64,000 nt of DNA from an uncultured Candidatus Saccharibacteria bacterium (GTDB lineage: Bacteria > Patescibacteriota > Dojkabacteria > J137), in contig CAZSKK010000001.1 in NCBI GenBank assembly GCA_964607415.1, positions 68,190-132,189 of the forward strand, in the 5' to 3' direction. The translations under genes and the position numbers were made by a program. Below are positions 7,762 to 39,828 of this stretch, piece by piece. Position 1 is the stretch's first letter; every line of letters begins with the position of its first letter. The notes below the pieces were generated by a model. That model saw only the letters and a list, made by a program, of their open reading frames with translations, did no database searches and was not told the origin of the DNA.

Positions 7762-9465
7762 TTAGCGTATTGGTATTACTGTTTTAGATATTTCATCTTC
7801 AGGTACTTTGTTTAAATTTATTGGTAACACAATAGTAAACGTAGATCCTTTGCCTATTCCTTCACTTTCTATTAGTAAATCTCCGCCATGAAGCTTCATA
7901 ATATTTCTAACAACATACAATCCTAGCCCTGTTCCTCCTGGGCTTGTTAAGTTGGTTGTTTTAGGTTTTAATCGAACAAATTTCTCACCTAATTTCGATA
8001 CGTCTTCTTTGTCAATACCACGTCCATTATCTTTTAGAGCAATGTAAACTTTTGAATTATCCTTATATAGTCTCAATTCAACTATTGACTGCTTTCCCTC
8101 AATGTTAACCCCGTATTTTAGAGCATTTGTAAGTAGTGCATCTATACTTTGCCTAATTCTCGTCTCGTCTGCTTTGATGTTAAAAGCCTTTAACTCGGAA
8201 TCATTAAACTTTAATTCAAAACGTTTTGCATCATCTACTTTTGACATAAACTCTAAACTTTTTCTCGCAAGATCAACCAAATCAAATTCAGATATATTTA
8301 ATTCTATTCTTTTCTTATCAATCCTTGCAGCTTCTAATACGTCATTAAGAACGGCAAATCCTTGAACTAGCAATTCATCAATACTAAAAATATCCGTAAA
8401 TAAGTCATCGACTTCTTTAGGTTCTGCTTTCCCAGCTTTCCAAACATCAATTCTTTTAGCTGCCGTCTCCTTAATATAATTTATAGTTTGCTTTATTATA
8501 GACAATGGAGTCTTAATTTCATGTCCTATTATATCTAGTTGATTTTCCTGTTCCTCAGCTTTCCTCTGTATAAACGCTTTACTTTCTTCCAATTCAGTAT
8601 TTGTCTTAGCTAATTCTTCACGTTGCTTGATTTCATTTAGTATGCTTCGCATTAATATTGTACATAAGCCTACAAAAAATATAAGCATGATGATTTTAAT
8701 TTCCTGAGGGACAATTGTAATAATATCAATGAGTAGTAGAATACTCATTGCACTTATCACGAACGCAGCTAAAGCTACCTTTACATTCAGAAATTGCCTC
8801 GATACCATTGCTATAGCTGTAAACATCAAAAATATTATTGCAGAATAATCTCCATAATGCTGGTACTCAGCAGTATTCAAGAAAGTGGTAGTCAAAATGT
8901 TAAAAATTACATTGAAGACAATAAATAGTATTGTACCTATGAGGAAAAGCTTAATTTTCCGTTTTTCGCTTTCTGATGAGGTTATATATCGCGAAATGAA
9001 ATAATATACGAAAATAATAGAAATTAATCCCGCAAATATGCTGAAAGCAGGATAAATATTCCCAAAATGTATTTCATTTCCCCATTCTCTTTTAATAGCA
9101 CTATCAATAATTGTATTCGTAAAAAGAGATAAAAGTACAAATATTGAACTCACAGTGAATAATCCCCATTTTAAAATAGGTTTTTTAATCTTTAAGAAAC
9201 TTTCAATATAAAAGACATAAGCAGCAAAGAAAAATGCTGCTACAAAAGCTAAATTTAATCTATAAGACAAAATAGATAAATTTAAATTTGATTCTGTATA
9301 ACCTAAGTATGCGAAATCTACCCAACCCATGAGTAGAATTGTCATTACAACGAACCATCTATATAGGTTTTCTTTGAAGGAGTTAGCAAGTACAACAATA
9401 ATTAGAAAAATACTTATTCCATTTATTACTGCTAGTATTAAAGTTTCAAGAGGTAAAACGTTCAT
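7762..9465 (-). CDS. Sensor histidine kinase (polytopic N-terminal sensor, HisKA + HATPase_c)
   Basis: Several N-terminal TM helices; H-box IIGHEIKTPLSII; N/G boxes LKDNGRGIDKEDV ... GGTGLGLYVVRNIMKLHGG. Confidence 0.85.
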   Translation of the reverse strand: MNVLPLETLILAVINGISIFLIIVVLANSFKENLYRWFVVMTILLMGWVDFAYLGYTESNLNLSILSYRLNLAFVAAFFFAAYVFYIESFLKIKKPILKWGLFTVSSIFVLLSLFTNTIIDSAIKREWGNEIHFGNIYPAFSIFAGLISIIFVYYFISRYITSSESEKRKIKLFLIGTILFIVFNVIFNILTTTFLNTAEYQHYGDYSAIIFLMFTAIAMVSRQFLNVKVALAAFVISAMSILLLIDIITIVPQEIKIIMLIFFVGLCTILMRSILNEIKQREELAKTNTELEESKAFIQRKAEEQENQLDIIGHEIKTPLSIIKQTINYIKETAAKRIDVWKAGKAEPKEVDDLFTDIFSIDELLVQGFAVLNDVLEAARIDKKRIELNISEFDLVDLARKSLEFMSKVDDAKRFELKFNDSELKAFNIKADETRIRQSIDALLTNALKYGVNIEGKQSIVELRLYKDNSKVYIALKDNGRGIDKEDVSKLGEKFVRLKPKTTNLTSPGGTGLGLYVVRNIMKLHGGDLLIESEGIGKGSTFTIVLPINLNKVPEDEISKTVIPIR

Positions 9466-9471
9466 GTGATA

Positions 9472-10353
9472 TCAATTCAAAAATATTAACTTACTTATAA
9501 ATACCAGTATCGGCCATAAAATATATTCTCCATCAGCTATTATATACGATAAGTTACGTAATTCCCTTCCTTTTAATTTTAGAGATTGTGTTAAATAGTA
9601 CAATCCATATAGAATAAAGAAAATATATACAAATGCAGATTTTGGTAAAGCATTCATATAAATCCCTAAAACTAATGGAATAAATGTAAATAACTTTAGG
9701 ATGTATAAAAAGTAAACTGTTCTCTTTAAACCCCATACAACAGGAAACGTTTTTAAATTCCTTTGTTTATCACTAACGATATCTTTTATATCAAAAAAAG
9801 TTGAATTAATAAACGCTGTCAGAAAGATAATAATAAAAAAGAAAAAATAAAACGCAGTAAGCTTGGATTGATAAAATAAAGGAACTAAGAAGATTTGTAA
9901 TGCCCAAAAGAAAGCAGAGTAGAAATTTTTTGATCCTGTGACAAATTTAGCAATCTTTGCTTTAAAGTAGTCTGTATAAAGTATTCCGCCTACAACTACA
10001 GAAACCACAAATGTTATTGTGGGGATATTAGTTGTTAAAAGTAAAATTATTAAAGAAATTGTATACACTGCAAGTAAGAATTCAGTAAGACGTTTTCTAT
10101 TATTTATATGTTTTGCCCGTTCTGGATTTGAATCTGCATCGAATCGTAATTCTTTGAAATGATTATAAGAATAAATTACTTGTGAACTTAAATATGGAAT
10201 CAACAGAACAACAATGTTGAAGGGTAGTTCCAAGAGCTGTACTATGGTTAGAATAACACCTAATGCTCCAAATGATAATAAATGCCCTCCATAAACAACC
10301 TCCATTAACAATATTGAGGATTTGTTTGATAAAAAGTTTAGTATTTTTTTCAT
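9472..10353 (-). CDS. UbiA-family prenyltransferase (polytopic membrane protein)
   Basis: Many TM segments; Asp-rich motif DIKDIVSDKQRNLKTFPVVWG (DxxDxxxD ... G); adjacent to a polyprenyl diphosphate synthase. Confidence 0.45.
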   Translation of the reverse strand: MKKILNFLSNKSSILLMEVVYGGHLLSFGALGVILTIVQLLELPFNIVVLLIPYLSSQVIYSYNHFKELRFDADSNPERAKHINNRKRLTEFLLAVYTISLIILLLTTNIPTITFVVSVVVGGILYTDYFKAKIAKFVTGSKNFYSAFFWALQIFLVPLFYQSKLTAFYFFFFIIIFLTAFINSTFFDIKDIVSDKQRNLKTFPVVWGLKRTVYFLYILKLFTFIPLVLGIYMNALPKSAFVYIFFILYGLYYLTQSLKLKGRELRNLSYIIADGEYILWPILVFISKLIFLN

Positions 10354-10371
10354 TATTATAAAGTTAAGTAA

Positions 10372-11448
10372 TTAAACATTGCGAATAATCATATAATCTG
10401 CAATGCTTTCCAAAAATTCGTAGGCAGATCTATCTTTATTAGAAAAGTGTTTTAAAGCTGTCTTTGCCTTTAAAACTTGATCTTCGCACTCTCTAATAGA
10501 ATAATCCAATGCTCCTGTATTTTTCATAATTAATCTTACTTCATCTGCCTCAAAATCTGTAAGATCTCTTTTTCCTAAATATTGTTCAAGCTTTAATTTA
10601 TCTTCTGACGTACCCTTCTTTAGTACTTCAAGGATTAAAAGAGTCTTTTTACCCTCTATTAAATCCCCTATATCTTCTTTTCCTGTTTCATCACTTTTCC
10701 CAAAAACACCTAGAATATCATCTCTTATTTGAAATGCAACACCACTTGGCATAGCATATTTGTTTAATGCCTTCAAATCTGTATCAGTTGCCCCTGCAAG
10801 AATTGCTCCAGCAAATAAGGGTAATCTATAAGTATAAGTTGCTGTTTTATAGTAATGAACTCTTAAAATATCTTCCTCTGTATAATTTAGTGGATAATTA
10901 TAGTTAAGGAGAATATCGTGAATTTGACCGAAACATACGGTAGCAATCTCTCTTGCTACAATTCTAATCAATTCATTTTTATTTTGAAGAGGGAAGTTTG
11001 AATTGCCTATTATCTCTAAGGCAAATTGATTAGCTAAATCACCAGATAAAATTCCCATTGTATTACCAATATGAAAATCATCTTCGAATTCATTTTTTAA
11101 CGAAAACTCTTCGTAAATTTTATGGATAGTTTTTCCGCCTCTTCGTAAAGAAGATCTATCCATAATATCATCATGTATTAGTAGGAAAGATTGAATAAGC
11201 TCAATAAATATTGAGAGTTTTATTATTTCATTATCATCTTTTCCACCAAATAATTTATAGGCGTAATAAATTAATGTAGCTCTAAATCTTTTACCACCTC
11301 TAAGTGTAAATTCACTAAGATGTTCTATAAATTCTTTAACAAAAGGGGAAATATTTTCAAATTCTCTACTCTTATCATCAAAATAGCTTTTCAAAATTGG
11401 CTCAATTTTTTCTTTATACCTATTGATTTCGTCTTCTGGACTAATCAT
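10372..11448 (-). CDS. Polyprenyl (geranylgeranyl/farnesyl) diphosphate synthase
   Basis: First DDxxD motif LLIHDDIMD with upstream RGGK; second motif FQIRDDILG. Confidence 0.85.
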   Translation of the reverse strand: MISPEDEINRYKEKIEPILKSYFDDKSREFENISPFVKEFIEHLSEFTLRGGKRFRATLIYYAYKLFGGKDDNEIIKLSIFIELIQSFLLIHDDIMDRSSLRRGGKTIHKIYEEFSLKNEFEDDFHIGNTMGILSGDLANQFALEIIGNSNFPLQNKNELIRIVAREIATVCFGQIHDILLNYNYPLNYTEEDILRVHYYKTATYTYRLPLFAGAILAGATDTDLKALNKYAMPSGVAFQIRDDILGVFGKSDETGKEDIGDLIEGKKTLLILEVLKKGTSEDKLKLEQYLGKRDLTDFEADEVRLIMKNTGALDYSIRECEDQVLKAKTALKHFSNKDRSAYEFLESIADYMIIRNV

Positions 11449-12032: not shown

Positions 12033-12527
12033 TTAAACTTTTGTTGGGTCTAATAAATTAGCCAGGTCAGACTTAGGAACACTGTAACCGCTAACCCTGA
12101 AATCATGAATAATTTCTCGTGTGTAGTCTTGCATATCCATCAGATTTTCAGCAAAAATAGTTCCTTCCGCAGAAATATCATTAATTATTTGCTCCCAAGC
12201 TTGCCTTTTCTTCTTAATCTTTGTTAGTCCAAACTGTAAATTTGCTAATCTGCCAGACATCAAGCTGATTTTGTTAATTATAGAAGCATCGGGCAATTGT
12301 AAGTTAGTATCGGCTTTACTCTCGAATACCAAGGCAGTAATATCAGAGTTAAGTGAGGACATTTTCTTTGTAACTTCATCAATCTTTAAAATTTTATTTG
12401 TATTTTCTTCTAATGCACTTTCGGTTACAGTAAAGACTTCTTCTCCAAGATAATATCTAAGATCAGTAATAGAACTTATAATTCCTTCATACTTGTCCTT
12501 ATTTGGCATTGGATTATCTGTATTCAT
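12033..12527 (-). CDS. Hypothetical protein
   Basis: ORF only; coiled-coil-like composition. Confidence 0.3.
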   Translation of the reverse strand: MNTDNPMPNKDKYEGIISSITDLRYYLGEEVFTVTESALEENTNKILKIDEVTKKMSSLNSDITALVFESKADTNLQLPDASIINKISLMSGRLANLQFGLTKIKKKRQAWEQIINDISAEGTIFAENLMDMQDYTREIIHDFRVSGYSVPKSDLANLLDPTKV

Positions 12528-12849
12528 AGGTTAGAAAATAAAATTATAAATAATGGTCAACATCAAACGTTATTATATTGCAAATTTTATGATATTGATA
12601 GACTATATAGCGTTTCCAGTGATCCTTGACAACCAATTTACTTCAATTATTTCACTTTGTGGGTAAAGTAAATTACAATTCAATTTTCTTAAAGTTACCC
12701 ATAAATTTCTTATTGCATTGTAATCAATTTGTAAGATTTTAGGTTAACGAGTTGTTTAAGTTTTATATAAAATGAAAAACTTTCAAGTTAATTCAAAATC
12801 TTCAGAGGCAAGGCTTGCGACTTTTTTACGCCGCATGAAGTTAAAGTTG

Positions 12850-12876
12850 CCCGATATATGAAAATATATCGGGCTT
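12850..12876 (-). terminator. Hairpin downstream of the 12880..13164 gene
   Basis: gcccgatatat-gaaa-atatatcgggc perfect 11-bp stem. Confidence 0.4.
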
Positions 12877-12879
12877 ACT

Positions 12880-13164
12880 CTAAAACATTGATAATTGTTC
12901 AATCTTGTTTTTAACAATCGGATTGCTAAGCATTAGAGAATCTTCCAATTGTTGAGCTAATAAAAATGATACTTTATTTGGTTCTCCAAAAAGTTCATCT
13001 CTAAACATAAAGTACGATTGATAACCTGTCTTTGAAATTGTTTTACCTTTAAACTCAAAATGATGTACTGAACGATCTTCAATATCTCCGAACATAAAAG
13101 GAGTAAAAACAATATTAACTGAATATCCAGATTTCAAAGTGTATTCAAATATTTCTTTTTTCAT
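12880..13164 (-). CDS. Hypothetical protein
   Basis: ORF only. Confidence 0.3.
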   Translation of the reverse strand: MKKEIFEYTLKSGYSVNIVFTPFMFGDIEDRSVHHFEFKGKTISKTGYQSYFMFRDELFGEPNKVSFLLAQQLEDSLMLSNPIVKNKIEQLSMF

Positions 13165-13174
13165 AGTAAAAAAA

Positions 13175-13435
13175 CTAATTAAAATAAAATTCTGTAATCT
13201 TCTTAGTACAACGATTAATGTTTTCGTTTATCAATCGCAAAGTATATTGTCTATCTGCATTAAATTGTTTTAATGGATAGCACTTTCTTTCAACTTCGAT
13301 ATAATCTTCCCCTATAAGATCGGTTACATTGAGATAGAATCTTGCTTCTTTTAAAAGTTCTTTAGCTAGATTTATCCATCTATACTTTTGCCTATAGACA
13401 AGATCTATAGCGATATAGTCATCTAAAGTTTTCAT
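13175..13435 (-). CDS. Hypothetical protein
   Basis: ORF only. Confidence 0.3.
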   Translation of the reverse strand: MKTLDDYIAIDLVYRQKYRWINLAKELLKEARFYLNVTDLIGEDYIEVERKCYPLKQFNADRQYTLRLINENINRCTKKITEFYFN

Positions 13436-13468
13436 AGAAAAATGTTAAAAGTAGAATAGTGTTTTTAA

Positions 13469-13486
13469 TGTGGTTATCGCTTCCAC
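13469..13486. repeat. 18-nt motif gtggttatcgcttccact (copy 1), immediately 3' of the 13494..14159 gene
   Basis: Identical 18-mer recurs at 14363..14380. Confidence 0.6.
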
Positions 13487-13493
13487 TGAAGAT

Positions 13494-14159
13494 TTACTCT
13501 TTGTTGTTTAGGTTTGACTTCTTAGCCAATTCAACAACATTATTGAATGCTTGGTCTCTATCTTTAGCAGTTTCAAAAGTAATTACACAACTACGATTTT
13601 TAAATAGCTGGATTATTAGATTTCCCAATTGAAATTTCCCAGACCAAAAGCGATTATAATTTTGGTCTCTACCCTCAAGTGGTTTTATCTTGTCTGAAAG
13701 TTCAAAAGAATTTGGTTTATTTCCTGTAAATAGGAAAATCATTTGTGATAATTTCTCAACTACATCAGAATCAAAGTTTGCGTAAATATCAAAACTTAAT
13801 GATTTATTATTTCGTTTTGTTAGACTAGATTTGTTTGTATACTCATTAACTCTCACAAGATAATAGGCTTCTCTAATTAAAGCTTCGTATTTATCTGCCT
13901 CTTCTTTTTCATCAGCTTTCTTTTTAAGTTCAAGTATCATTTCATCTGATATATCTTCACTTTTAAGACAATATTTTGTAATGTCCTGATATTTACCTGG
14001 TAGATATGAGTAACTAAAAAAATTGCACAAAATCTTTTCTACTCCTTTTTCAAGTAACTCATCTAATGATCTAAAGCTGTAATCCTCAAGCCCAATATTC
14101 ATAAATTCTTGTTTAAGAATTAGTGCTTGTGATTTAAGTATTTCTATTTCGTTTTCCAT
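13494..14159 (-). CDS. Hypothetical protein
   Basis: 221 aa ORF. Confidence 0.3.
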   Translation of the reverse strand: MENEIEILKSQALILKQEFMNIGLEDYSFRSLDELLEKGVEKILCNFFSYSYLPGKYQDITKYCLKSEDISDEMILELKKKADEKEEADKYEALIREAYYLVRVNEYTNKSSLTKRNNKSLSFDIYANFDSDVVEKLSQMIFLFTGNKPNSFELSDKIKPLEGRDQNYNRFWSGKFQLGNLIIQLFKNRSCVITFETAKDRDQAFNNVVELAKKSNLNNKE

Positions 14160-14362
14160 AGTGTTAAAATTAATTGTTAAGTAAGTAATTGCTTGATATA
14201 GGGTAGTTGTCTTTCAAGGGTGGCTATCCTATTATTATAAATCCTGCATCTGGGTCATTTACAATTGATAATCCTAATTCATTAAGTTTTAAGATTGTCT
14301 CTATTGTTATTGGTTTAGATTTCATAAATGTATTTAGTAATAAATAGAATTTGGTGTTTTGG

Positions 14363-14380
14363 AGTGGTTATCGCTTCCAC
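14363..14380. repeat. 18-nt motif gtggttatcgcttccact (copy 2), immediately 3' of the SSB gene
   Basis: Identical to 13469..13486; GTGG ... CCAC ends are self-complementary. Confidence 0.6.
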
Positions 14381-14387
14381 TTGATGA

Positions 14388-14750
14388 TTAATTAATCATT
14401 GATTCATCAATTACGATTTCATCAGGATTAATGCTTTCATCTGAACTTAGTTGAATTCTTAAAATTCTTCTAAGAACTACAGTTGAGTTAAACTTTTTCT
14501 CACCTGCTTTATTAGTGTATTCAGAAATTTCTAAATCACCATTGATTAAAACAAGTTCTCCTTTTTCAAAAGAAGTAAGAATATTTGTTAAGTTTCCAAA
14601 AGCAATAAGCGTATGGTAATTAACTTTATCTTTAGTAAGGTTGACAGCAACATTAACTCTAACGTAATCGGTCTTTCCGTCATTAGATTTTCTAATTTCA
14701 GGTTTAGCAGTAAGATTTCCGATAATTTCGACAGATTGTGTATTTCTCAT
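14388..14750 (-). CDS. ssb: Single-stranded DNA-binding protein (single OB fold)
   Basis: VEIIGNLTAKPEIRKSNDGKTDYVRVNVAVN ... YHTLIAFGNL ... typical SSB OB-fold pattern; 120 aa. Confidence 0.7.
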   Translation of the reverse strand: MRNTQSVEIIGNLTAKPEIRKSNDGKTDYVRVNVAVNLTKDKVNYHTLIAFGNLTNILTSFEKGELVLINGDLEISEYTNKAGEKKFNSTVVLRRILRIQLSSDESINPDEIVIDESMIN

Positions 14751-15379
14751 AATGTAAATAAAATAAAAATTAATAAATAAATTTAAGTATTAGTTAAGGT
14801 CTAACACTCACCACCTCATAATTAACCTTCTTACATCTCCCGCCCTTCTTGGTTAGGAAGTTATCTAGTATTCATGTTAATCACTATTAAATTGTTAATG
14901 TTCTAGTTAAGTAATAAAAATCATTCCCTTAACTAAAGGCCAATAGATAAACGGAGCGAAGCGAAGTGGTCATGTAAGAAAGAAAATTTGACAAGAAAAA
15001 TTCATAAATTATGTTCACCGAAGGGGAAGGATATTTTTTGAATTTAGCGAAGCAGTTCTTGCAAACCCGGAGGGCAGTGAACGAATGCGATAGCAGTAGT
15101 GAGCAATAAGTTTTCGCTTACATGATATGCTATGCCTGTTAAGGGAAGGGTTCTAAAAATCATCAAATAGTTGCGAAGCAATCCATAATCAAAGCCAAAC
15201 TTTTTGTTTCTTTTTCATCTTGGCAACTGAATAGTTGAAAAAGAAAACGAACAAGGAATATGAACAATATAATGTCCTGAGCATCATTTAGGCAGTTGTG
15301 TTAAAGCTTTTCAAGCATTATTCAATGGTATTTATAAGGTAAAAGATTTATAATTCAATGTAACTATAAGGCTTTAACC

Positions 15380-16213
15380 ATGAAGAAAGACTCTATTCTA
15401 AAAAAAATCCCCAATATCTCGCATATTCCTCGAAATGAAGAGGAATTGAACAGTATCTTGCTGTTTTTAAATAAACCTAAAGATATTGAAGATTTTTATG
15501 ACTTCATAAGCATTAGAGTTCTATCTAAGGATAAACTTCCTCTTTTTGGTAGCCAGAAAAAAGATTCGACTGAAAGAAAATGGCTAAATCATTTGATTAT
15601 GATTAATCTTATTAACAGAGACAAAAAGAATAACAAGGTTACATTAACTGCTCTGTCTAAGAAATACTTATTAAAAAATATTAATCTTTATGATCTTGTA
15701 TTAACTTCAAGCAGAGCTGCACCATTATTCAATCTTTTAATAGAAAATCTAATTACCGTTTCATACCTAACAAACTCATTCCCTTCTGTTTTTGAACTTT
15801 ATGAGTTATTACAAAAGAAATTTGGATATATAGATAGACCCGTCAGTGCAACTAGGAATCTCTCAGGAATGATTAACTATCTCAAAGTGGGAAATATTAT
15901 AAAAAAAACTTCAGGAATTCATTTAACTGGAAATATTTTCTTACAGCAAGAAGAATACAATTCTTATGAACAAATAATGATTAATTTTGTTAGTAATAAT
16001 TCTAAATATGGTGGTTATGCAAGTGTAAAGGATCTTATATCTTATCTGAAGGACACTTTGCAGAATTTAGATCTTACTAAAATAGACTTTCTTATTCAAC
16101 GTTTTATAGCCAATAATAAAAACATATCTTTTCAAGAAGCTAGTTCTAATAAAGAAACTGGTATTTTCTTAAATGGAAAGAACATCCTATTTGTTAGATT
16201 TAACAAGAAGTAG
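15380..16213 (+). CDS. Hypothetical protein, first gene of a three-gene cassette
   Basis: 277 aa; no motif recognised; 41-nt overlap with the downstream ATPase gene. Confidence 0.4.
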   Translation: MKKDSILKKIPNISHIPRNEEELNSILLFLNKPKDIEDFYDFISIRVLSKDKLPLFGSQKKDSTERKWLNHLIMINLINRDKKNNKVTLTALSKKYLLKNINLYDLVLTSSRAAPLFNLLIENLITVSYLTNSFPSVFELYELLQKKFGYIDRPVSATRNLSGMINYLKVGNIIKKTSGIHLTGNIFLQQEEYNSYEQIMINFVSNNSKYGGYASVKDLISYLKDTLQNLDLTKIDFLIQRFIANNKNISFQEASSNKETGIFLNGKNILFVRFNKK

Positions 16214-17597
16214 TATGACTAAAGCAGATTTATTAAAAATAACTTCACCTCAGCCAGAATTACATCCTAAATATATTGTTGGTGAACAAGAAAATTGGGG
16301 GAAATTCAGGAAACATTTGGAAACATTTAGCAATGTAGAAGAATCTTATGCAGGTACAATTCAAGGAATTACAGGAAATGGGAAAACACATTTTATTCGT
16401 TATGCTAAAGAACAATTGAAAGATGAATATAACGTATTCATTATAGAAGATATGTTTTCTCAAAGTAATTTTATTGACTCACTAAGGAATATTTACAAAA
16501 GATTAATTAGCAATGATAACGATAGCACGAATAGAATTGAGGAATTAGCAAAACATATAAAGAATTTAGACATAAAAAGAAAAGATCTTAATAAAAAACT
16601 TATTGAAGAAGATAAAAAAAGTGTTTTAGAACTATTTAATCCGGTTTTGGAAGAGCTGGCTAAACTAGAAGCAATTGAGAGATATCCAAGTAAAATCTTA
16701 CATCTTCTCAGAAAAAATATTGACCATGATAAAACTATTGAAGTTTTAATTAGGTTATTTTCTGGGGAAGTAATACAGAATAAAGAAGATTTAGAGCTAT
16801 TACAAAATCTTAATCTAAAACGAAATTATTTAATTGAAAAGGAAGATGATTTTGTAGATTATTTTGTAGATTATATAGAATTAGTTTATGCACTTACTGG
16901 CAAATATCCACTCATATTTATGGACGAAGCTGATAGAGCCATTGCATTAGAAAGTTCCACAATACTTCCTAAAACTGCCTTCCAAGTGCTTGATAGCTTA
17001 AGGGAAGTTTTCAATAAGTTAAGAACACCTACCTTTTTTACAATTGGCACAACAACTCAAGCCTGGAGGTTAATTGAAAATTCAATTTCAGCTTTTGCAC
17101 GAAGATTTAATCGGTTTGAAATTGTATTAAAAGAAGGTAAAAGTAGCGATGAAATAATTGAGTTTATTCAACAGAGATCAGTAGAAAAGGGATTAGATTA
17201 TTCAGAATTGGAGAGAGATGGGATCATTACTGACAAGTTAATAAACGAATTAAGTTATTTCTCCAACACTTGGAAAGATGTTATCAACAATATAAAAAAA
17301 TATGTTGAAGAAGGAGAATTAGTAAAAGCTGAACCTACTTCTTTGGAAGAGATTGAAAATGAAATTCTAAAGACACTTAATATTTTTAGAAATTTAGAGT
17401 TATCTGACATTATTGAGAATAATCAAGTATTGAAAAAGTTATATCCTACTAAAAGAAACTTACCAGTAAGTATTATGACCAACTTGTTTGCCAAGAAAAA
17501 ATTTGTAGATAGGTATAAAAGAACTAAAGGGACGCCTTATGTCTATACGATAACGGATACTGGTGAACAGTATTTAAAGTTGAAAGCAGATGTCTAA
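16173..17597 (+). CDS. P-loop NTPase with a C-terminal winged-helix-like tail (AAA+/Cdc6-like or divergent DEAD-like), second gene of the cassette
   Basis: Walker A QGITGNGKTHF; Walker B PLIFMDEADRA, about 180 aa downstream with a coiled-coil-like insert between; C-terminal KFVDRYKRTKGTPYVYTITDTGEQYLK resembles a wH; 8-nt overlap with the next gene. Confidence 0.55.
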   Translation: MERTSYLLDLTRSSMTKADLLKITSPQPELHPKYIVGEQENWGKFRKHLETFSNVEESYAGTIQGITGNGKTHFIRYAKEQLKDEYNVFIIEDMFSQSNFIDSLRNIYKRLISNDNDSTNRIEELAKHIKNLDIKRKDLNKKLIEEDKKSVLELFNPVLEELAKLEAIERYPSKILHLLRKNIDHDKTIEVLIRLFSGEVIQNKEDLELLQNLNLKRNYLIEKEDDFVDYFVDYIELVYALTGKYPLIFMDEADRAIALESSTILPKTAFQVLDSLREVFNKLRTPTFFTIGTTTQAWRLIENSISAFARRFNRFEIVLKEGKSSDEIIEFIQQRSVEKGLDYSELERDGIITDKLINELSYFSNTWKDVINNIKKYVEEGELVKAEPTSLEEIENEILKTLNIFRNLELSDIIENNQVLKKLYPTKRNLPVSIMTNLFAKKKFVDRYKRTKGTPYVYTITDTGEQYLKLKADV

Positions 17598-18213
17598 ATA
17601 TTCATATAACGAAAAAAAATATATCAAAAATCAATCAGAAATTACACAATTTCTAAAGGATTCAGGAATTGAGGCGGAACTTGCAGGGTGGGAGCAGGTT
17701 TTTTCTAAACAAGACCTAGATTATGAGACTTTTTGTGGACTAAAAGAGAGTTTCGACCATTTAAGAAATTGTAAAATGAGAACTGCTGTTTTTACATTAG
17801 GAAGAACTATTGAGGAACTGTTAGATAGCTATATGGATAATGCAATAAATAGCGGATACAAAATAGGAGTTACTGCTAAAGATATTGAAGAGTGCAGAAA
17901 TACTTTTGCATTCTCTTTAAAGATTGATTTTTTGAAAGGTGAAGAAATACAATTGGGGAGAATTTATAAACGAAAGGTAAATGGGAAAAAAAGAACTAGC
18001 AAAAAAGTAAAGCTAAAGATAGCCGCATTGATAAAGACTGCTACAGCAGATAGTCTACATGAAATCAGAGAATATGGAAGAAATATTGGAGCACATCGAG
18101 CCAATAAAAGTGATGTTAAAAAAGTTAAAGAAAAGATTATTCCGTGGTTTACATTAGCACTAAACTTCATCTATGATACACAAGGAGAAATTATTAAGAT
18201 GCGGAAGAAATAA
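17590..18213 (+). CDS. Small protein with an HEPN-type R-x4-H motif (candidate RNase effector), third gene of the cassette
   Basis: EYGRNIGAHRANK (R164 ... H169; nt 18079..18096) in the C-terminal third; basic K/R-rich linker; 3' end overlaps the convergent C5-MTase gene by 20 nt. Confidence 0.4.
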   Translation: MSKYSYNEKKYIKNQSEITQFLKDSGIEAELAGWEQVFSKQDLDYETFCGLKESFDHLRNCKMRTAVFTLGRTIEELLDSYMDNAINSGYKIGVTAKDIEECRNTFAFSLKIDFLKGEEIQLGRIYKRKVNGKKRTSKKVKLKIAALIKTATADSLHEIREYGRNIGAHRANKSDVKKVKEKIIPWFTLALNFIYDTQGEIIKMRKK

Positions 18214-19249
18214 CTTCTCCAATATACTCACCCAATAAAGGTGGTACTGCATTTCCAATCTGTCGATATATAGAACGTAAGTTTCCTTTAAAAATGAAAT
18301 TATCAGGAAAACTTTGAATTCGTGCCACTTCTCTTGCAGTCAAAGGACGATTTTCATAATGACTTACTGTTCTCATTGTATACCAGTTCGTTAAAACTGT
18401 TGGTGTTTGTGCCCTTCTTGATAATTTATAATATTTTTGCGTTTTACCTTCGCCTTCTTTAAGATATAGTTTACTTGAGGGGAAAATATTATTTTTCACA
18501 CCACCTATTCGATTATTTCGAAAATATCTACCTTCAGGAATATATTTGATTCTCTCAATATCAATATCTGTCGGCTTTATAAAGTCGTGATTATATACGG
18601 GTTCTTTAATAGTATTTAAATCACCTATTACATCTTCTAAAGTCAATGGATTTTCGTTAGGTAACTGCAAATCTAAAGATTTATTTAAAGAAGCAATGAA
18701 TATAACTCTTTCTCTCTTCTGACACATACCCAATTTACTACAATCAATAATTTTATGGGTTACATTATACCCAATTGATGAATATAGATCATAAATCTCT
18801 TCTACAATTTTTCCTGAATTAAAGGATAAGATTCCTTTTACATTTTCAAAAACTACATATTTTGGTTTAAATATTTTCGCATATTTAAAAATCTCTAAGA
18901 ATAACTTTCCACGAGGATCGTCAGGATTACGTAATCCTATTGTAGAGAAGGACTGGCAAGGACTTCCACCACATAATATGGTTATTTTCTTTTTGCCGAC
19001 TATTCTTTTAACTTTTCTTATCTCAAGATCAGTTATATCAGAACATAAAACTTCGGCATCAGGATGATTAATTTTGTATGTAGCACAGGCATCTGGATCG
19101 TTGTCTATCGCAAGCAATGGAATAAACCCTGCTTTCATGAGACCGTTACTTAATCCACCTGGACCTGAAAATAAATCGATAAAATACATATTGCATTGTA
19201 CGTAAATAGTATCCGTTAACAGTCTAATATGTTTCCGGTCCAATTGCAA
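18194..19249 (-). CDS. DNA (cytosine-5)-methyltransferase
   Basis: Motif I FIDLFSGPGGLSNGL; motif IV GGSPCQSFS; ENV motif FENVKG. Confidence 0.9.
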   Translation of the reverse strand: MQLDRKHIRLLTDTIYVQCNMYFIDLFSGPGGLSNGLMKAGFIPLLAIDNDPDACATYKINHPDAEVLCSDITDLEIRKVKRIVGKKKITILCGGSPCQSFSTIGLRNPDDPRGKLFLEIFKYAKIFKPKYVVFENVKGILSFNSGKIVEEIYDLYSSIGYNVTHKIIDCSKLGMCQKRERVIFIASLNKSLDLQLPNENPLTLEDVIGDLNTIKEPVYNHDFIKPTDIDIERIKYIPEGRYFRNNRIGGVKNNIFPSSKLYLKEGEGKTQKYYKLSRRAQTPTVLTNWYTMRTVSHYENRPLTAREVARIQSFPDNFIFKGNLRSIYRQIGNAVPPLLGEYIGEVISSAS

Positions 19250-19309: not shown

Positions 19310-22300
19310 TTAAGCAATAATTTTTGAAATATCCTCGCTTGAAAGTTTATAAGAAGAAAATATAGAATTATCTATATCATCATTTAATTTGCGAATGTTA
19401 TTTTTTAAAGTTATGAATTCGTTTTGTTTTACACTAAACCAATTCATAAGCTCTTCCTTCTTAGTAAGAGATAAACTGACTTTATTTTTAATAAGTTCTT
19501 TATCAAGTGTATCCCAGGTTATTTCATTTTGAGTCCAGAAATCATTATTTAAGTTTAGTCGGTACTCACTTCTTAGCAAAGCATTAGATTTTTCTTTTAA
19601 CGCTTCTAATCGTTCAGTTTCTTTAATTAATTGTTTTACAAAAATATAAATCTCGGAAGTAAAGACTTTTTCTGAGATAGGCAAGCTTTCTAAGAACTTA
19701 GTTGAAAAGGTATAAAATCCACCTTGAAACAAGGAGCTTGTATTTTTTATATAGAACCATGTAACTTTTGAATTAAGTAATCCAAGTAAATTATAATATT
19801 GCTCTTCTGTCTTATCTTTTAAAACAATTGAATAGACCTTTGTATTATGCAAGAATCTTTTCTCATCAATAGTTGCAGATGGTCGACTTGCAATATAAGG
19901 AGTGATAATCTTTAATTGTTCAAATATACTTAATTCTCTAGGTCTATGAAGCGAATACCATTGTTCGATATTAGTTTTATATCTTTTCTTTTTTACGATC
20001 AATTCATCTTTAAAATTTAAAAAGTAGTTATAGATTAAGGGATATGTACTTTGCATCTCATTTTCTGAAATAAATACTGTTTTCCCATTAATCTCTTTAT
20101 GAGGATAGATAACATAATATTTTGACCTACTTTCTATGTATCTTGAAACATCTTTTCCCTTTAGAATTGGTCTTAATAATGAAGCTTCCAATTTAACATC
20201 CGATTTCAATGCTTCTGAATATCCTTCAAAATAATTACCAGTTATTTTTCCTTCAAGCATAAAAATATCATCTCCCACAGTAACAATTCCTTGATAGATT
20301 CCTTCTACAAGATCCTTTAATTTTTGATTATTAGAAGAAAGCTTATTTAAAATTTCAACATTTACGCCACTACTTACCTCCCACTTTTTATCTGTAAGTT
20401 CTCTTAATGTTTGCAGTTCAAAAATATAATCAGTCTTAGATTGTAATAATAGTGGATCAATATGAATATACTCAAATGATTCTTGTTGAGTTTTACTTAA
20501 AAACAAAAGACAGGTGTAGGTTGTAGCATCTTCAAACACAGAATATCCATCAAAATGAAATAATCTGTTCATTAATTTATTTTTTTGCAGAAACTTTCTA
20601 ACGCCTACGCCATATTCTGAATTCAGAAATTTATGAGGAAGAATAAATCCTACTTTACCTTTATTTTTTATTAAATTACTTGCTAATTCAATAAAAAGTA
20701 CATATATATCGAACTTACCAATTGCTGATTGAAAATTTTTAATATAGTATTCAGTTTCATTTGTATAATTTGTTCGTAATCCTTGTATCTTAACGTAAGG
20801 AGGATTACCAATAACAACATCGAATCCTCCACTATCAAATATCTCTTTAAATTCTTCTTTCCATTTAAATGCTTTCTCACCTGCAACTTGAACATCATCA
20901 ATTAAACTATTCCCACACTTAATATTTTCATCAAGTGTAGTTAGCTCCTTCGATTTATTTGCAGTTTTTAACCAAAGACTTAATTTGGTAATTTGCACAG
21001 ATTCTTCATTAAGATCAACTCCAAATATATTATTGTTAAGAATATGTTTATCTAAATCAAAAATTTCAGCTTGTCCCAATTTAAGTGAAGCAATAGCTTC
21101 ATTCACTACCTGTCCTTCTTTATAGAGATAATCAAATACTTGATTTAAGAATGCACCACTTCCGCAAGCTGGATCTAAAACTTTAATATTTCTAAGTTTT
21201 TCTTTATATGCTTCCCAGAACTTCCTATGCTTCTCAACAGAGTTATTACCTTTATATGTACCTTTCCTAGTTTTAATTGATTTGAAATCTTCATCGGTAA
21301 GTTCACTCAAAGAATCAAAACCTAATTCTTTCTTTCTATCCATTAACCAACCTCCAACTGCTTGATCTACAATGTACCTGGTTATGTATTCTGGCGTGTA
21401 GAATATTCCATCTTTTTTACGTTTACCATTTTTCTTTTCAGTTTGCTCCTCTGTTATTTCAGAACGCATTTCTTCAAGATCTGAAATTGATTGTTCAAAA
21501 ATATGCCCTAGAATATTTACATTTAAGTCAGAATCAAAATCATATTCAGATAATTTAAGAAGTTCTAAAATGATTTCATCTTTAATTACGAGGTTATCTA
21601 ATACTTGATCTTCTTTAAATAAACCTCCATTAAATTTATTAATATTAAGTGGAGGATTTCCTTTATCAATAGAGTGAAATAATCCTTTCGCTTGATCCCA
21701 TACCTTAGTTTCTGATGGAGCAAAGCTTAACTTTGCAGCTTCAAGTAGTTTTCTAAAAATTCCAGCAGGAATTAAGTCTAAATCTTCACAGAAACAAATA
21801 AATATTACTCTATCTAATATCTTTTGAGCTTTTTCAAGAAGAATATCAGCATCAATATTCGGATTATTTGAACTTAAATGATTGAACAAATGATTTCTTG
21901 TTTCCTTATATGTTTTATAGAAGGCTTTTGAGATATCTTGTTCTTTTACAAAACTATCCTTTAGAAGATCATCTATAACTGAATCCCTATCTTTATTAAT
22001 CAGATTTTCTTTAGAGAAAAGAAATAAGAATTTCTTTAAAACATCCTCATTCCCTATTTCAAGTAAATCTATAGATTCGTAGAATCCTTGACCTCTTTCT
22101 TTGCTATATAGTCTAATTTCCTTGAAATTTGAAACTATAGCCCATTTACAACCATCAAATTTGGAAAGGTAGTCAAATGCCTGTTCAACAGGAGATTGTT
22201 CGTTTTTTCTTCCTTTTTGCTTGGCATCAAGATTAGTTTTGGCATCTTTAAGTTCAATAACTACTCTTGTTTGATTGTAAGAAGTGGAGAAAAATCCCAA

Positions 22301-22579
22301 TCCTCCATCTGCCTCTCTTGAATCAACATCAGTTTTAGGCTCAGCAAACATATTCCATTCGCTTCCACCCTCTGACTGTGTTTTATATCCCAAAACTCCT
22401 TCAAATATTTTAATTAAGAATTGTCCTTGTACCCCAGTTTCTTTAGTTTTATCCAAATCGCTTTCCTTTAAAGCAGTTTGCCATTTCGTAAGCGTAGATT
22501 TAAGCAGATCTATATTAGAAATCTCTGAAAGATTTAGTTTATTAGTCTTTTGTTTTAGAAGTCTCTTATTAAATAACAT
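19310..22579 (-). CDS. Type IIG (fused endonuclease/N6-adenine methyltransferase) restriction-modification enzyme
   Basis: N-terminal PD-(D/E)xK-like EADGG ... VVIELKDAK; gamma-class MTase order with motif I LDPACGSGAFL before motif IV VVIGNPPYV; long C-terminal putative target-recognition region; 1089 aa. Confidence 0.8.
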   Translation of the reverse strand: MLFNKRLLKQKTNKLNLSEISNIDLLKSTLTKWQTALKESDLDKTKETGVQGQFLIKIFEGVLGYKTQSEGGSEWNMFAEPKTDVDSREADGGLGFFSTSYNQTRVVIELKDAKTNLDAKQKGRKNEQSPVEQAFDYLSKFDGCKWAIVSNFKEIRLYSKERGQGFYESIDLLEIGNEDVLKKFLFLFSKENLINKDRDSVIDDLLKDSFVKEQDISKAFYKTYKETRNHLFNHLSSNNPNIDADILLEKAQKILDRVIFICFCEDLDLIPAGIFRKLLEAAKLSFAPSETKVWDQAKGLFHSIDKGNPPLNINKFNGGLFKEDQVLDNLVIKDEIILELLKLSEYDFDSDLNVNILGHIFEQSISDLEEMRSEITEEQTEKKNGKRKKDGIFYTPEYITRYIVDQAVGGWLMDRKKELGFDSLSELTDEDFKSIKTRKGTYKGNNSVEKHRKFWEAYKEKLRNIKVLDPACGSGAFLNQVFDYLYKEGQVVNEAIASLKLGQAEIFDLDKHILNNNIFGVDLNEESVQITKLSLWLKTANKSKELTTLDENIKCGNSLIDDVQVAGEKAFKWKEEFKEIFDSGGFDVVIGNPPYVKIQGLRTNYTNETEYYIKNFQSAIGKFDIYVLFIELASNLIKNKGKVGFILPHKFLNSEYGVGVRKFLQKNKLMNRLFHFDGYSVFEDATTYTCLLFLSKTQQESFEYIHIDPLLLQSKTDYIFELQTLRELTDKKWEVSSGVNVEILNKLSSNNQKLKDLVEGIYQGIVTVGDDIFMLEGKITGNYFEGYSEALKSDVKLEASLLRPILKGKDVSRYIESRSKYYVIYPHKEINGKTVFISENEMQSTYPLIYNYFLNFKDELIVKKKRYKTNIEQWYSLHRPRELSIFEQLKIITPYIASRPSATIDEKRFLHNTKVYSIVLKDKTEEQYYNLLGLLNSKVTWFYIKNTSSLFQGGFYTFSTKFLESLPISEKVFTSEIYIFVKQLIKETERLEALKEKSNALLRSEYRLNLNNDFWTQNEITWDTLDKELIKNKVSLSLTKKEELMNWFSVKQNEFITLKNNIRKLNDDIDNSIFSSYKLSSEDISKIIA

Positions 22580-23163: not shown

Positions 23164-23427
23164 ATGAGGACTTTAGGCACATCACCATACGAACAAGCAG
23201 AAGATGCTATGGGAATGAGTGCGTCTTGGTTTAATAGTTTTATAACTTTCTGTTTTAAAACTGCCTTCTGGATTCTCAAAATATTGATAATTCTTATGAT
23301 AGCAATTATTAAACTTCCTCATAAGTTCTATGTTTGGTATAAGAATAGAGAATTTAGAAGAAAACATCCTGAAATGTTTCAAGGATTTGAACCTGTAATT
23401 CCTGAAGTTCCACCATTAGAAGATTGA
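23164..23427 (+). CDS. Small hypothetical membrane protein
   Basis: One hydrophobic segment (FWILKILIILMIAIIKL); 87 aa. Confidence 0.25.
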   Translation: MRTLGTSPYEQAEDAMGMSASWFNSFITFCFKTAFWILKILIILMIAIIKLPHKFYVWYKNREFRRKHPEMFQGFEPVIPEVPPLED

Positions 23428-23975
23428 CCTTCAACCTTCTCCCAAACTGTAAATACTCGCTCAGGAGAATCCCAATATTCACATGTATAAAGTAAGATTT
23501 CTGAATCTTTTAGTGGCTTATTGTTATTTCCCATATAAATTTCCTTCACTTTATAAATATACTTTTGTCCCTCCCAATAAATTTCAGCTTCATCTCCAAT
23601 TTTTAGCTTATCTACATTAAACATTGTCTGATGGACATTGTAATCTTCTTGTAAGTAATCAACGCCAAATCTATGAGCTGCAATAACTAATGGGAAATCA
23701 TTTGTATTCAGATTTTGTACCCAACCACCAAAACGGAGATACCCTTCGTTTGTACTTAATTCAAGCTCAACTTCTATAGATGGAATAAGGATTCTATCTA
23801 TTTTAGAAACTTCTGTTTCTTTTACTTCTGTTGGAGCTTGAATAGTCTCATCTTCAAAATCTGGAATTGATGGTGGATTAAGCTTGTTATACAAGCCAAT
23901 TAGCAGCAATACTCCATGAAACATAATGATTATTGCAAAAGCGACTTTAATTTGTTTATCAGTGAATTCGTCCAT
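23379..23975 (-). CDS. Sortase-family transpeptidase (SrtA-like)
   Basis: N-terminal TM anchor; His motif LVIAAHRF (cf. IAGH); catalytic Cys in LLYTCEYW ... VFTVWEKV (cf. SrtA TLITCDDY ... VWEKRK). Confidence 0.6.
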   Translation of the reverse strand: MDEFTDKQIKVAFAIIIMFHGVLLLIGLYNKLNPPSIPDFEDETIQAPTEVKETEVSKIDRILIPSIEVELELSTNEGYLRFGGWVQNLNTNDFPLVIAAHRFGVDYLQEDYNVHQTMFNVDKLKIGDEAEIYWEGQKYIYKVKEIYMGNNNKPLKDSEILLYTCEYWDSPERVFTVWEKVEGQSSNGGTSGITGSNP

Positions 23976-24835
23976 AAGTTAGGATATGTAAAAATAAAAT
24001 GATGATTAATAAATTGCATAATTAAATCAGATCCAATGCTATACAAATTCTCATGCTGTCCTACAGCTCCATAAATGATGTTGCTTGTTCTGGTGAATTT
24101 ATCCCTACTGTAGATCAGATCATTCTCCTGAATATCTGGCTTTTCAATCATTCTCTCCATTGCACTTGAATTTCTTTCAGTAAGGAATAAAACAATTGGA
24201 AAACTTGAATAAACTTCCTGCCATTTCCCATAACTCATATATTCAAAGTACCTCATAAACTTTTCTGTAAGCTTTTTCTTGCCTTCTGTTCCAGTATCGT
24301 ACTCAATGAAAATTTCAAATACTTTGCCACTAATATCTAGTTTGCAATAAGAGTCGGGCTTTAATTCACGTCTTACCTTCTTACCAGTAGGGTAAGAGTA
24401 ATATTCATAAATATGCCTATTATTTTGCTCTCCCTTCCATTCAAGAATTTTAATATCTGGCAAATCTTTCAAACTTCTTACAAATTCAGCATAAAGATTT
24501 GCATTACTTAAAGTGTGTTCTAAGGCAAATAATTGAACTCGACCTTTCTTTTCTGGTATTGAAAGATGCTTAATACTAATATTAAATTCTCGGCTTAAAA
24601 CCTTTCCACCCAAATATTTGAGATAAAAAGCTTTAGAATTGTTCCCATATTGATAAAAGCCTATTAAATTTTCTTTTACACACTGTCTTAAAACTCTACT
24701 TACAGCTTCTCTTGATGTGTAAATTCCTTTTTCAATACACAACAAATTCAACACAGCTAAAGGTGTAAATTTAAAACTTTCAATTATCTTCAAAACTTCT
24801 ATTTTATTTTTTGTTATTTTGTATTTTTCCTTCAT
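23930..24835 (-). CDS. Replication-relaxation family protein (plasmid/ICE-type), tentative
   Basis: N-terminal wHTH-like region; central LKPDSYCKLDISGKVFEIFIEYDTGTEG, typical of the Replic_Relax fold; sits beside a structured putative origin locus. Confidence 0.4.
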   Translation of the reverse strand: MKEKYKITKNKIEVLKIIESFKFTPLAVLNLLCIEKGIYTSREAVSRVLRQCVKENLIGFYQYGNNSKAFYLKYLGGKVLSREFNISIKHLSIPEKKGRVQLFALEHTLSNANLYAEFVRSLKDLPDIKILEWKGEQNNRHIYEYYSYPTGKKVRRELKPDSYCKLDISGKVFEIFIEYDTGTEGKKKLTEKFMRYFEYMSYGKWQEVYSSFPIVLFLTERNSSAMERMIEKPDIQENDLIYSRDKFTRTSNIIYGAVGQHENLYSIGSDLIMQFINHHFIFTYPNLWTNSLINKLKSLLQ

Positions 24836-24859
24836 ATTTTTTTGTATTTAATCTACTTT

Positions 24860-25075
24860 TTTTGTTCTCTCTCCTCCTCATCTCTCTCCCTCCTCCCTCT
24901 CTCTTACTATCTATATATACTTTCCCTCCCCCTCCTTCCCGACCCTCTTGTCCACCACGTTAGTGGCACATGTATATATCTATATACATTGTCGAGGGAG
25001 AGATTGGGTTTGCTCCTGAAAGGAGGAAACCCAATCTGTCACCGATGGACAAGAGTGAGGAGGGAAGGACTCTTT
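24860..25075. promoter_or_regulatory. Structured non-coding locus: polypyrimidine tract plus nested inverted repeats (candidate oriT / replication origin)
   Basis: CT-only run 24866..24905; AT palindrome acatgtatata-tc-tatatacat; 17-bp imperfect inverted repeat gagattgggtttgctcc / ggaggaaacccaatctg around tgaaa; outer imperfect inverted repeat tccttcccgaccctcttgtcca ... tggacaagagtgaggagggaagga. Confidence 0.4.
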
Positions 25076-25114
25076 CGGAATAGTAGATCAAATTTTTAAA
25101 GATCATTTTTGATT

Positions 25115-27748: not shown

Positions 27749-27754
27749 AGAGAT

Positions 27755-28420: not shown

Positions 28421-28444
28421 AAATAAAAAAATATAAAAAATAAA

Positions 28445-29356: not shown

Positions 29357-29635
29357 TTAAAGTACATTGAAACAAACGTTTAATAAGTTATTTCTCGACT
29401 CAAACTCTATGTATCCTGCATGTTTCAAACTTTCAAAATTGATAAGCTCAAAGCATTTATCAAAGGCTTTTCTTAAATCAATTTGGCAATATCCACTCTC
29501 TGTAATTTGTTTAAGTAATTCAAAGTACAGACAACAGGCAGTACCATTAATTCTTGGATCACAAATAACATTTGTGATTGAATTAAGACACTTAGAATTT
29601 GCAATCTTGCGAAACTCAATATTTATTTGATTCAT
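29357..29635 (-). CDS. Small Cys-rich hypothetical protein
   Basis: 92 aa with 8 Cys. Confidence 0.25.
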   Translation of the reverse strand: MNQINIEFRKIANSKCLNSITNVICDPRINGTACCLYFELLKQITESGYCQIDLRKAFDKCFELINFESLKHAGYIEFESRNNLLNVCFNVL

Positions 29636-29653
29636 AAAGTTAAAAAGTAATAA

Positions 29654-30706: not shown

Positions 30707-30708
30707 AG

Positions 30709-36545: not shown

Positions 36546-36663
36546 CTAGTAATTAATAAAAAATAAAATTATTTGTTTCTTTCTCGTCTTTCTTTCCAGA
36601 TCCCTCGAAGTATCAGGAATGAACAGTAAGAAATGACGAGTGTAAGAGTTATTGAAATCACAA

Positions 36664-39798: not shown

Positions 39799-39828
39799 AA
39801 AATAAGGTGATAAAAAATATAATAATTA

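Follow-up and report, generated by a model that had tools for sequence, protein, structure and literature searches.

Do three closely packed genes on a mobile element of an uncultured bacterium form a defence system, and which of the neighbouring genes belongs to it? We investigated this question in a 64,000-nucleotide stretch of DNA, hereafter the window (assembly GCA_964607415.1, contig CAZSKK010000001.1, positions 68,190 to 132,189), from an uncultured Candidatus Saccharibacteria bacterium that GTDB places in Dojkabacteria. An open reading frame (ORF) scan of the window showed three plus-strand ORFs (A, B, and C) within a region occupied mostly by minus-strand genes. A previous sequence-only reading, made by a model without database searches, had proposed that A, B, and C are a three-gene defence cassette lying against a restriction-modification (RM) pair composed of a C5-methyltransferase and a Type IIG enzyme. 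The triad withstood our analysis, in that it is conserved in nine independent lineages, whereas its boundary did not: in the window, the cassette appears to be a four-gene, RM-like unit that includes the C5-methyltransferase. Taken together, we consider, at a probability of roughly one half, that the locus is a four-gene defence module that follows RM-like logic and forms part of the cargo of an integrative conjugative element (ICE).

Results

The A-B-C family is extremely rare, with about nine lineages among billions of proteins. A word-indexed search of 5.8 billion clusters returned four matches for A, four for B, and two for C, and an exhaustive hidden Markov model search with the B profile against 1.84 billion representatives returned four matches at E <= 0.001. 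Among GTDB genomes, the first scan found none and a second scan with a broader profile found three more loci. The JGI metagenomes yielded only a duplicate of one locus (L004), and no family member was found in IMG/VR in either of two scans or in the phage and plasmid collections. When all searches were pooled, the independent lineages fell into two clades. Clade 1, in which B is at least 49% identical to that of the window, comprised five: the window (identical to L005-L009), L001/L002, L003, L004 (identical to L010), and L016. Clade 2, in which B is 23–29% identical, comprised four: L011, L012 (identical to L015; a metagenome-assembled genome (MAG) labelled Proteobacteria), L013 (a Lachnospiraceae MAG), and L014 (the isolate Fictibacillus sp. 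BK138).

Synteny was complete across the family. A survey of homologues for co-occurrence of the three genes, which the sequence-only reading had suggested, showed the order A-like, B-like, C-like in nine of nine lineages, with overlapping or near-abutting junctions (the junctions ranged from a ~17-nt overlap to a 20-nt gap). Furthermore, comparison of the clade 1 and clade 2 profiles by hhalign gave 97.5% probability for both the A family (E = 4.8e-12, 233 columns) and the C family (E = 7.1e-12, 171 columns). The synteny in nine lineages, together with the profile homology between the clades, indicates that A-B-C is one real, conserved three-gene unit. In addition, homologues of A, B, and C at 28–70% identity kept the same gene order, indicating that these are real genes and not chance ORFs. 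A seeming truncation of A at positions 9290-9647 of L001, on a 209-kb scaffold, was an assembly artefact caused by a run of 10 N, and the gene is intact in L002.

The gene that faces C from the opposite strand encodes a C5-cytosine DNA methyltransferase. The window protein matched PF00145 over its full length (E = 3.3e-71) and carries all catalytic motifs, including FSGPGG, PCQ, ENV, QKRER, and GNAVPP (motifs I, IV, VI, VIII, and X), from which methyltransferase activity is predicted. Its closest solved structure is M.HaeIII (E = 1.5e-35), and its closest plasmid relatives are 37% identical. Orthologous methylases (57–64% identity) follow C on the opposite strand in L001, L003, L004, and L016; A-B-C and the same methylase are therefore kept together in five of the five independent clade-1 lineages, always convergently. 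The 3' ends of methylase and C overlap by 20 nt in the window, as the sequence-only reading had noted, and by 14, 20, 72, and 17 nt in L001, L003, L004, and L016, respectively. This linkage persists although the identity of C falls to 28–43% and the flanks differ wholly: beyond the four genes, the window has an MmeI-type enzyme, L001 has SmpB and Band_7, L003 has an RDD protein, and L004 has unknown genes. The methylase segment lying between motifs VIII and IX, taken here to be the target-recognition region, is 70% invariant, compared with 43–48% in the first 120 residues. From this most conserved block we argue that the target sequence may be the same throughout clade 1, which fits a fixed methylase specificity maintained with a partner. 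On these grounds, the C5-methyltransferase appears to belong to the A-B-C cassette as the conserved fourth gene in clade 1, and a functional coupling between the two is favoured, with some reserve.

Gene C encodes a putative RNase effector with a probable HEPN domain of DUF4145-like type. The R-x4-H signature pointed out by the sequence-only reading (R164/H169) is indeed present and is invariant in seven sequences; with a polar residue directly after the arginine (R164-N165-x3-H169), it has the Rx4-6H form expected of HEPN proteins. Across these seven sequences, which extend down to 20% identity, the invariant residues were E53, T65, L70, G71, R72, E75, L115, R164, N165, and H169, among them positions of an N-terminal LGR..E helix motif, while a lysine-rich insert is variable. 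DUF4145 was the top Pfam match in five of the eight family members tested, each below the 23.1-bit cut-off (19.8 bits in the window; 21.3 in P0010, the best, E = 2.9e-4; 15.2 in L001; 13.2 in L004; 16.6 in L014). DUF4145 belongs to the HEPN families, and domains of this superfamily that carry such a motif are metal-independent RNases (PMC3710099). RAZR, a DUF4145 protein, cleaves single-stranded RNA, and its R and H are essential (PMC13017515).

The clade-2 locus L013 adds a second line of evidence on C. There, the position of C (9163-10395) is taken by a C-homologous domain in which both R and N have been lost from the motif and to which a trypsin-like serine protease is fused; RNxxxH is lost only in this protease-fused variant, an apparent effector replacement within the family. 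Effector exchange of this kind is typical of defence systems, and it supports the view that C occupies an effector slot.

Gene B appears to encode an AAA+ ATPase, classical-AAA-like, with a helical insert and a lid region. The sequence-only reading had called it a non-ABC P-loop ATPase; the Walker motifs lie where that reading placed them, ~180 aa apart, and the family profile and Pfam matches specify the class as AAA+. Walker A, Walker B, sensor 1, and the arginine finger were found in all six B sequences aligned, with GxxGxGKTHF, DExD, the IG(T/A)T sensor-1 strand, and AF.(R)RF invariant. The stretch from sensor 1 to AFARRF could be aligned with ...IGATNKPW...FLRRF, the second region of homology in a classical AAA ATPase. 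When compared with the PDB, the six-sequence profile matched the Vps4-like AAA ATPase 4d81 (E = 3e-6) over Walker B, sensor 1, and RRF; a four-sequence profile gave weak matches, and significance came only with the six-sequence profile. Pfam matches were AAA_22 in five of six members (best 1.3e-8), PF00004 in four of six (best 9.2e-7), and AAA_16 in five of six, while the window protein alone stayed under the Pfam cut-offs (AAA_22, 22.8 bits vs 27). The AlphaFold2 model of B was poor (predicted local distance difference test (pLDDT) 57.4; predicted template-modelling score (pTM) 0.50), and the Foldseek search on it gave a best E of 0.018, with none reaching 0.001, the top matches being mostly AAA+ proteins.

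Two further features ascribed to B fared differently. The insert between Walker A and Walker B had been described as coiled-coil-like; the model instead gives several short helices, not one long coiled coil (pLDDT mostly 72–93, with one 10-residue block at 52), and the insert is 30–45 aa shorter in distant relatives. As for the proposed winged-helix tail, the best match was Penicillinase_R (E = 0.012) in the tail of one homologue, and the tail of the window protein had no family match and a pLDDT of 30–45, so that a C-terminal winged helix is possible.

Gene A had been described as having no recognisable motif. This held for sequence, as Pfam, PADLOC, NCBIfam, PHROGs, and PDB sequence/profile searches gave no family match for A, but not for structure: the AlphaFold2 model built from four sequences (pLDDT 83.9, pTM 0.78) contains three consecutive winged-helix units. 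The best structural matches by two methods were the DNA-recognition domains of the Type IIS enzymes N.BspD6I, BpuJI, and FokI; in Foldseek, FokI and BpuJI ranked first with a probability of 0.98, but with E values of 0.007–0.03 and template-modelling (TM) scores of 0.3–0.4. Sequence identity to these domains is only ~10%, the low TM-scores indicate that the relative placement of the domains differs, and A has no fused cleavage domain; we therefore regard the resemblance as a structural likeness rather than established homology. Among the polar residues of A, the best conserved (RK..NH and S..RN) map to the third helices of winged helices 1 and 2, and homologues of A are present in all nine loci. 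Based on the model, A is a putative nucleic-acid (DNA) recognition or sensor subunit.

The coordinates of the genes and motifs are given in Table 1. All homologues of B begin with MTK(A/T)(D/E)LLKI, which corresponds to the window ATG at 16215, and most gene calls on identical contigs likewise use this start, which leaves a 1-nt gap after the TAG of A. The 41-nt A/B overlap in the sequence-only reading arises only from taking the first ATG of the B ORF (16173); B is most likely 460 aa long, and this overlap is probably not real, whereas the 8-nt overlap between B and C stands. Upstream of A lies an unusually long non-coding gap of 629 bp (14751-15379) with a GC-richer stretch at ~15040-15110. 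This region had no Rfam match and no motif conserved across the homologous loci, and in it promoter-like sites were not enriched and no terminators were found.

Table 1. Positions in the window of the cassette genes, their diagnostic motifs, and the adjacent Type IIG gene.
Feature	Position	Strand	Length	Remark
Gene A	15380-16213	+	277 aa	TAG stop 16211-16213
A motif DSTERKWLNHL	15563..15595	+		third (recognition-position) helix of winged helix 1; RK..NH conserved in both clades
A motif SATRNLSGMINY	15845..15880	+		third helix of winged helix 2; S..RN conserved in both clades
Gene B	16215..17597	+	460 aa from conserved start	474-aa ORF opens 16173
B Walker A GITGNGKT	16365..16388	+		G..G.GKTHF invariant in six sequences
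B Walker B LIFMDEAD	16911..16934	+		DE.D invariant in six sequences
B sensor 1 (IGTTTQ) through arginine-finger segment AFARRF	17043..17108	+		six-sequence alignment
Gene C	17590-18213	+	207 aa	
C motif RNIGAH (R164-x4-H169)	18079..18096	+		HEPN catalytic-type; invariant in seven sequences
C5-cytosine DNA methyltransferase	18194..19189	-	331 aa from ATG at 19189	ORF to TTG at 19249
Type IIG enzyme ORF	19310-22579	-	1089 aa	

The window copy sits in an ICE whose backbone spans ~23379-43148. The earlier description of the context, a mobile element beside a restriction system, was confirmed by the ICE genes and the MmeI-type RM gene that adjoin the cassette. The ICE genes encode Replic_Relax, an 877-aa coupling-protein-like ATPase, two single-stranded DNA-binding proteins (SSBs), an HTH_36 protein, an M23 peptidase, a VirB4/TraG ATPase, a sortase, and a 1044-aa DUF11 adhesin. 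A large serine recombinase gene (41492-43114) overlaps with its 3' end a tRNA-Glu gene (43074-43148, minus strand). A search for an att-type repeat of the tRNA-Glu end that would define the left border of the ICE found none, as is expected for a serine recombinase.

Other copies occupy different settings. In Fictibacillus sp. BK138 (NZ_SGXL01000001.1), genes for HsdR, a YgjP-like protein, and an Mrr nuclease lie immediately upstream of the triad, which appears from these neighbours to sit in a defence island. Recombinase genes lie beside the triad in L011 and L012, and the L001 locus is chromosomal, with no mobility genes within 10 kb. On the other side of the Fictibacillus triad (L014, 2184-14068) are three uncharacterised genes, encoding 640, 282, and 378 aa. 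The largest of these proteins has a GHKL-ATPase-like ENIQNSLDG segment at its start and no Pfam match, and may be another unknown defence system.

Two small features were observed upstream of the 629-bp gap in the window. A 25-nt repeat (88% identical) at 13463-13487 and 14357-14381 contains the hairpin GTGG-TTATCGCTT-CCAC; its copies lie just downstream of two minus-strand genes, one of which is an SSB gene (14388-14750), and it could be a terminator or regulatory element of this small-gene block. Additionally, the minus-strand interval 12033-14159, between a response-regulator-like gene and the SSB gene, holds small ORFs (164, 94, 86, and 221 aa) that had no significant family match and may be further element cargo.

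Discussion

How might the four gene products work together? In the mechanism that we propose, the C5-methyltransferase would label host DNA as self at a single, fixed target sequence, and A would read nucleic acid, presumably the same site when it is unmethylated. B would form a complex with A and govern C as an ATP-driven switch or motor, and C, as a HEPN effector with an intact RNxxxH, would cleave RNA, leading to growth arrest or abortive infection and not to DNA cutting. RNA cleavage is the likely output because the HEPN enzymes cited here are all RNases (PMC3710099; RAZR, PMC13017515). A-B-C itself would be an autonomous sensor-ATPase-effector unit, since the sister clade has the triad without a methyltransferase, and clade 1 would have coupled this unit to the methylase.

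The steps of this proposal differ in likelihood. That A-B-C is a conflict or defence system of some kind is likely, and a defence role gains support from the Fictibacillus triad next to HsdR and Mrr and from the effector swap in L013. The mechanism as a whole, with sensing of methylation by A, complex formation, and RNase activity of C all predicted, falls at or slightly short of an even chance. More tentative is the specific formulation in which the locus is an RM system with an RNase as its 'restriction' arm, so that A and B would detect unmethylated DNA and unleash the HEPN RNase, and the cell would arrest.

Several observations weigh against our interpretation. The recognition-helix residues of A are conserved between clades with and without a methylase, which would be unexpected of a diversifying sequence-specificity subunit. 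The window and L003 are 69% identical in B but 57% in the methylase, and the trees are not congruent. The four distant loci of clade 2 hold the triad without an adjacent DNA methyltransferase, suggesting that the methylase is dispensable for the core. The nearest relatives of B are classical AAA protein remodellers (Vps4), and B may thus act on proteins and not on DNA. The assignment of C is affected as well: C never attained the Pfam DUF4145 threshold in any of the eight members tested, those of L003, L011, and L012 gave no DUF4145 match at all, and C had no PDB relative by sequence or profile search. Searches with Pfam, NCBIfam, PADLOC, PHROGs, and PDB profiles found no DNase family (PD-(D/E)xK, HNH, PLD, or other) and no recognisable DNA endonuclease domain in A, B, or C, so that a restriction-like outcome on DNA would have no visible catalyst. 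The sequence-only reading had also proposed to survey homologues for enrichment in defence islands, and clear defence-gene neighbours were present at only two of the nine loci. More generally, the function and defence role of A-B-C are predicted from sequence comparison and structure models.

These observations are in part what would be expected if A-B-C acted by itself as an abortive-infection or toxin-type system (sensor, AAA+ regulator, and HEPN toxin) that responds to a trigger other than methylation, the methylase being co-transferred cargo such as an orphan anti-restriction methylase. The methylase-free clade 2, the helix residues of A common to both clades, the incongruent identities of methylase and B, and the likeness of B to protein-remodelling ATPases all agree with such a system, as does the fact that single-gene DUF4145 RNases like RAZR are triggered by phage proteins and not by the state of the DNA (PMC13017515). 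We nevertheless consider it unlikely, albeit a serious contender, because the methylase is linked in 5/5 lineages with a convergent 3' overlap preserved despite deep divergence and unrelated flanks, the L001 locus is chromosomal with no mobility genes within 10 kb, the putative target-recognition segment is the most constrained part of the methylase, and no other restriction gene is conserved beside it. The linkage of the methylase would also suit an ATP-dependent multi-subunit DNA endonuclease in the manner of LlaJI or BsuMI, in which the nuclease fold has escaped recognition or the HEPN domain is atypical and directed at DNA; the resemblance of A to Type IIS recognition domains and the LlaJI precedent of an AAA+ subunit with a nuclease subunit (PMC1459862) point the same way. 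This is improbable, however, in light of the missing DNase signature (Pfam, PADLOC, NCBIfam, and PDB searches), the RNase nature of the cited HEPN enzymes (PMC3710099, PMC13017515), and the protease swap in L013, which suits an effector aimed at the cell better than one that cuts DNA.

A role outside defence is less probable still. B may combine AAA+ with a C-terminal winged helix, Aeropyrum ORC2 and yeast ORC were among its non-significant fold matches, and the window copy resides on an ICE; A-B-C could accordingly be pictured as a replication, partition, or maintenance module in which B is an ORC/Cdc6-like AAA+ protein with a winged helix, A its Cdt1-like tandem winged-helix partner, and C a small accessory protein. 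Yet the significant similarity of B is to the classical AAA clade and not to initiators, C keeps an invariant HEPN-type catalytic motif, the copies in L001 and L014 are chromosomal or in a defence island without other mobile-element replication genes, the linkage to a DNA methylase is strict, and the ICE already holds relaxase and HTH_36 replication-like genes. Least credible of all is the layout of the sequence-only reading, in which the C5-methyltransferase provides modification for the Type IIG enzyme and A-B-C is an unrelated neighbour. Although these two genes of the window lie side by side on one strand, the Type IIG enzyme (nuclease N-domain MmeI_N, helicase spacer, Eco57I/N6_Mtase/MmeI_Mtase, TaqI_C) is an MmeI-family fusion that is complete in itself, having both an N6-adenine methyltransferase and a specificity domain, and hence self-sufficient, leaving the C5 pairing unsupported, and no Type IIG gene was found beside the methylase in any other clade-1 lineage (0/4). 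Annotation should accordingly assign the C5-methyltransferase to the A-B-C cassette and not to its MmeI-type neighbour. The MmeI-family fusion is a second, independent defence gene of the same element.

If the four-gene module acts as proposed, epigenetic discrimination of self from non-self would be wired directly to abortive infection in a minimal package, and methylation-based self-recognition would be coupled to an RNA-directed abortive output without a DNA endonuclease. Such a link was predicted from genomics for RM-associated HEPN domains and has rarely been isolated in so small a system. The triad adds three uncharacterised protein families, none with curated annotation. The clades with and without the methylase offer a natural comparison for the contribution of the methylase, and the homologue in the cultured isolate Fictibacillus sp. 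BK138 makes experiments feasible.

Comparison with known systems

The sequence-only reading had held that the cassette matches no system architecture that it could name. In agreement with this, no PADLOC, NCBIfam, or PHROG model matched A, B, or C, PADLOC gave no match for any family member, and no description of a gene set of A, an AAA+ ATPase, HEPN, and a methylase was found in the searchable literature. This includes the PADLOC models of the ABC-ATPase systems (PrrC/RloC, Septu, Gabija, PARIS, and Lamassu), none of which matched A, B, or C; B appears to be AAA+.

In its logic, the cassette resembles BREX-related systems. In Type-1 BR/Hma, an ORC-like ATPase with winged helices carries a fused HEPN domain and is accompanied by a methyltransferase (PMC12839542). 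Both this system (a HEPN-DUF499 ATPase, an N6-methyltransferase, and a helicase-nuclease) and BREX (BrxA, BrxC, and PglX) share with the cassette the combination of a self-marking methyltransferase, an AAA+ ATPase, and HEPN (PMC12839542), and winged helices on the AAA+ ATPase, which are possible in B, and the use of a HEPN RNase for suicide or as a back-up effector would belong to the same shared logic. The parts themselves differ, however. The methylase of BREX and Type-1 BR is N6-adenine, whereas that of the window is C5-cytosine; the HEPN domain of Type-1 BR is fused to the ATPase, whereas the HEPN-like C is a separate downstream gene; and the BREX-related ATPase is of ORC/STAND type, whereas the best matches of B are classical AAA ATPases. 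In fact, Pfam DUF499 had no match in B, and BrxC_BrxD matched in only one of six members (E = 0.025). The cassette is without the helicase-nuclease, PglZ, and BrxL of those systems, and no PglZ or helicase was present at the clade 1 or clade 2 loci examined.

The layout of parts is likewise similar to that of LlaJI and BsuMI, in which one or more 5-methylcytosine (5mC) methyltransferases, a separate NTPase/AAA+ subunit, DNA specificity, and a separate nuclease together restrict unmethylated DNA. LlaJI consists of 5mC methylases, an AAA+ specificity subunit, and a nuclease, and its relative McrBC has no methylase (PMC1459862), which shows that methylases may be present or absent around one ATPase-nuclease core (PMC1459862); clade 1, which has the methylase, and clade 2, which does not, form a parallel case. 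In contrast to LlaJI and McrBC, whose effector is a PD-(D/E)xK McrC/R2 nuclease, the effector here is HEPN-like, and specificity would reside in a separate winged-helix protein (A). B and its family gave no AAA_5, McrB, or McrC match, and B is thus apparently not a McrB-type GTPase. CoCoNuT-type relatives of McrBC are predicted to target RNA (PMC11090510).

With respect to the predicted outcome, the nearest parallels are HEPN RNases. PrrC with EcoprrI is an RM-linked HEPN RNase, and DUF4145 has been noted in operons with RM and McrBC (PMC3710099). As predicted for the cassette, the HEPN RNase of PrrC-EcoprrI is governed by an NTPase in an RM context, with RNA cleavage as the abortive outcome. 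PrrC, however, is an ABC-type ATPase fused to HEPN that guards a complete Type I system, whereas the ATPase here is of AAA+ type and a separate protein, and there is no conventional endonuclease to guard. RAZR (PD-T7-4) shares with C the HEPN subfamily signal (DUF4145) and the R and H, which are essential in RAZR; its cleavage of single-stranded RNA and abortive infection were shown by experiment (PMC13017515). RAZR acts as one protein, has a zinc-finger domain, and is switched on by phage ring proteins, whereas C stands in a three- or four-gene context. By sequence, the cassette does not appear to be a member of the BREX-related, RM-linked HEPN (PrrC), or CoCoNuT-type systems. Instead, it appears to be new in its gene set and to stand closest to known ATPase/HEPN, restriction-modification-like defence.

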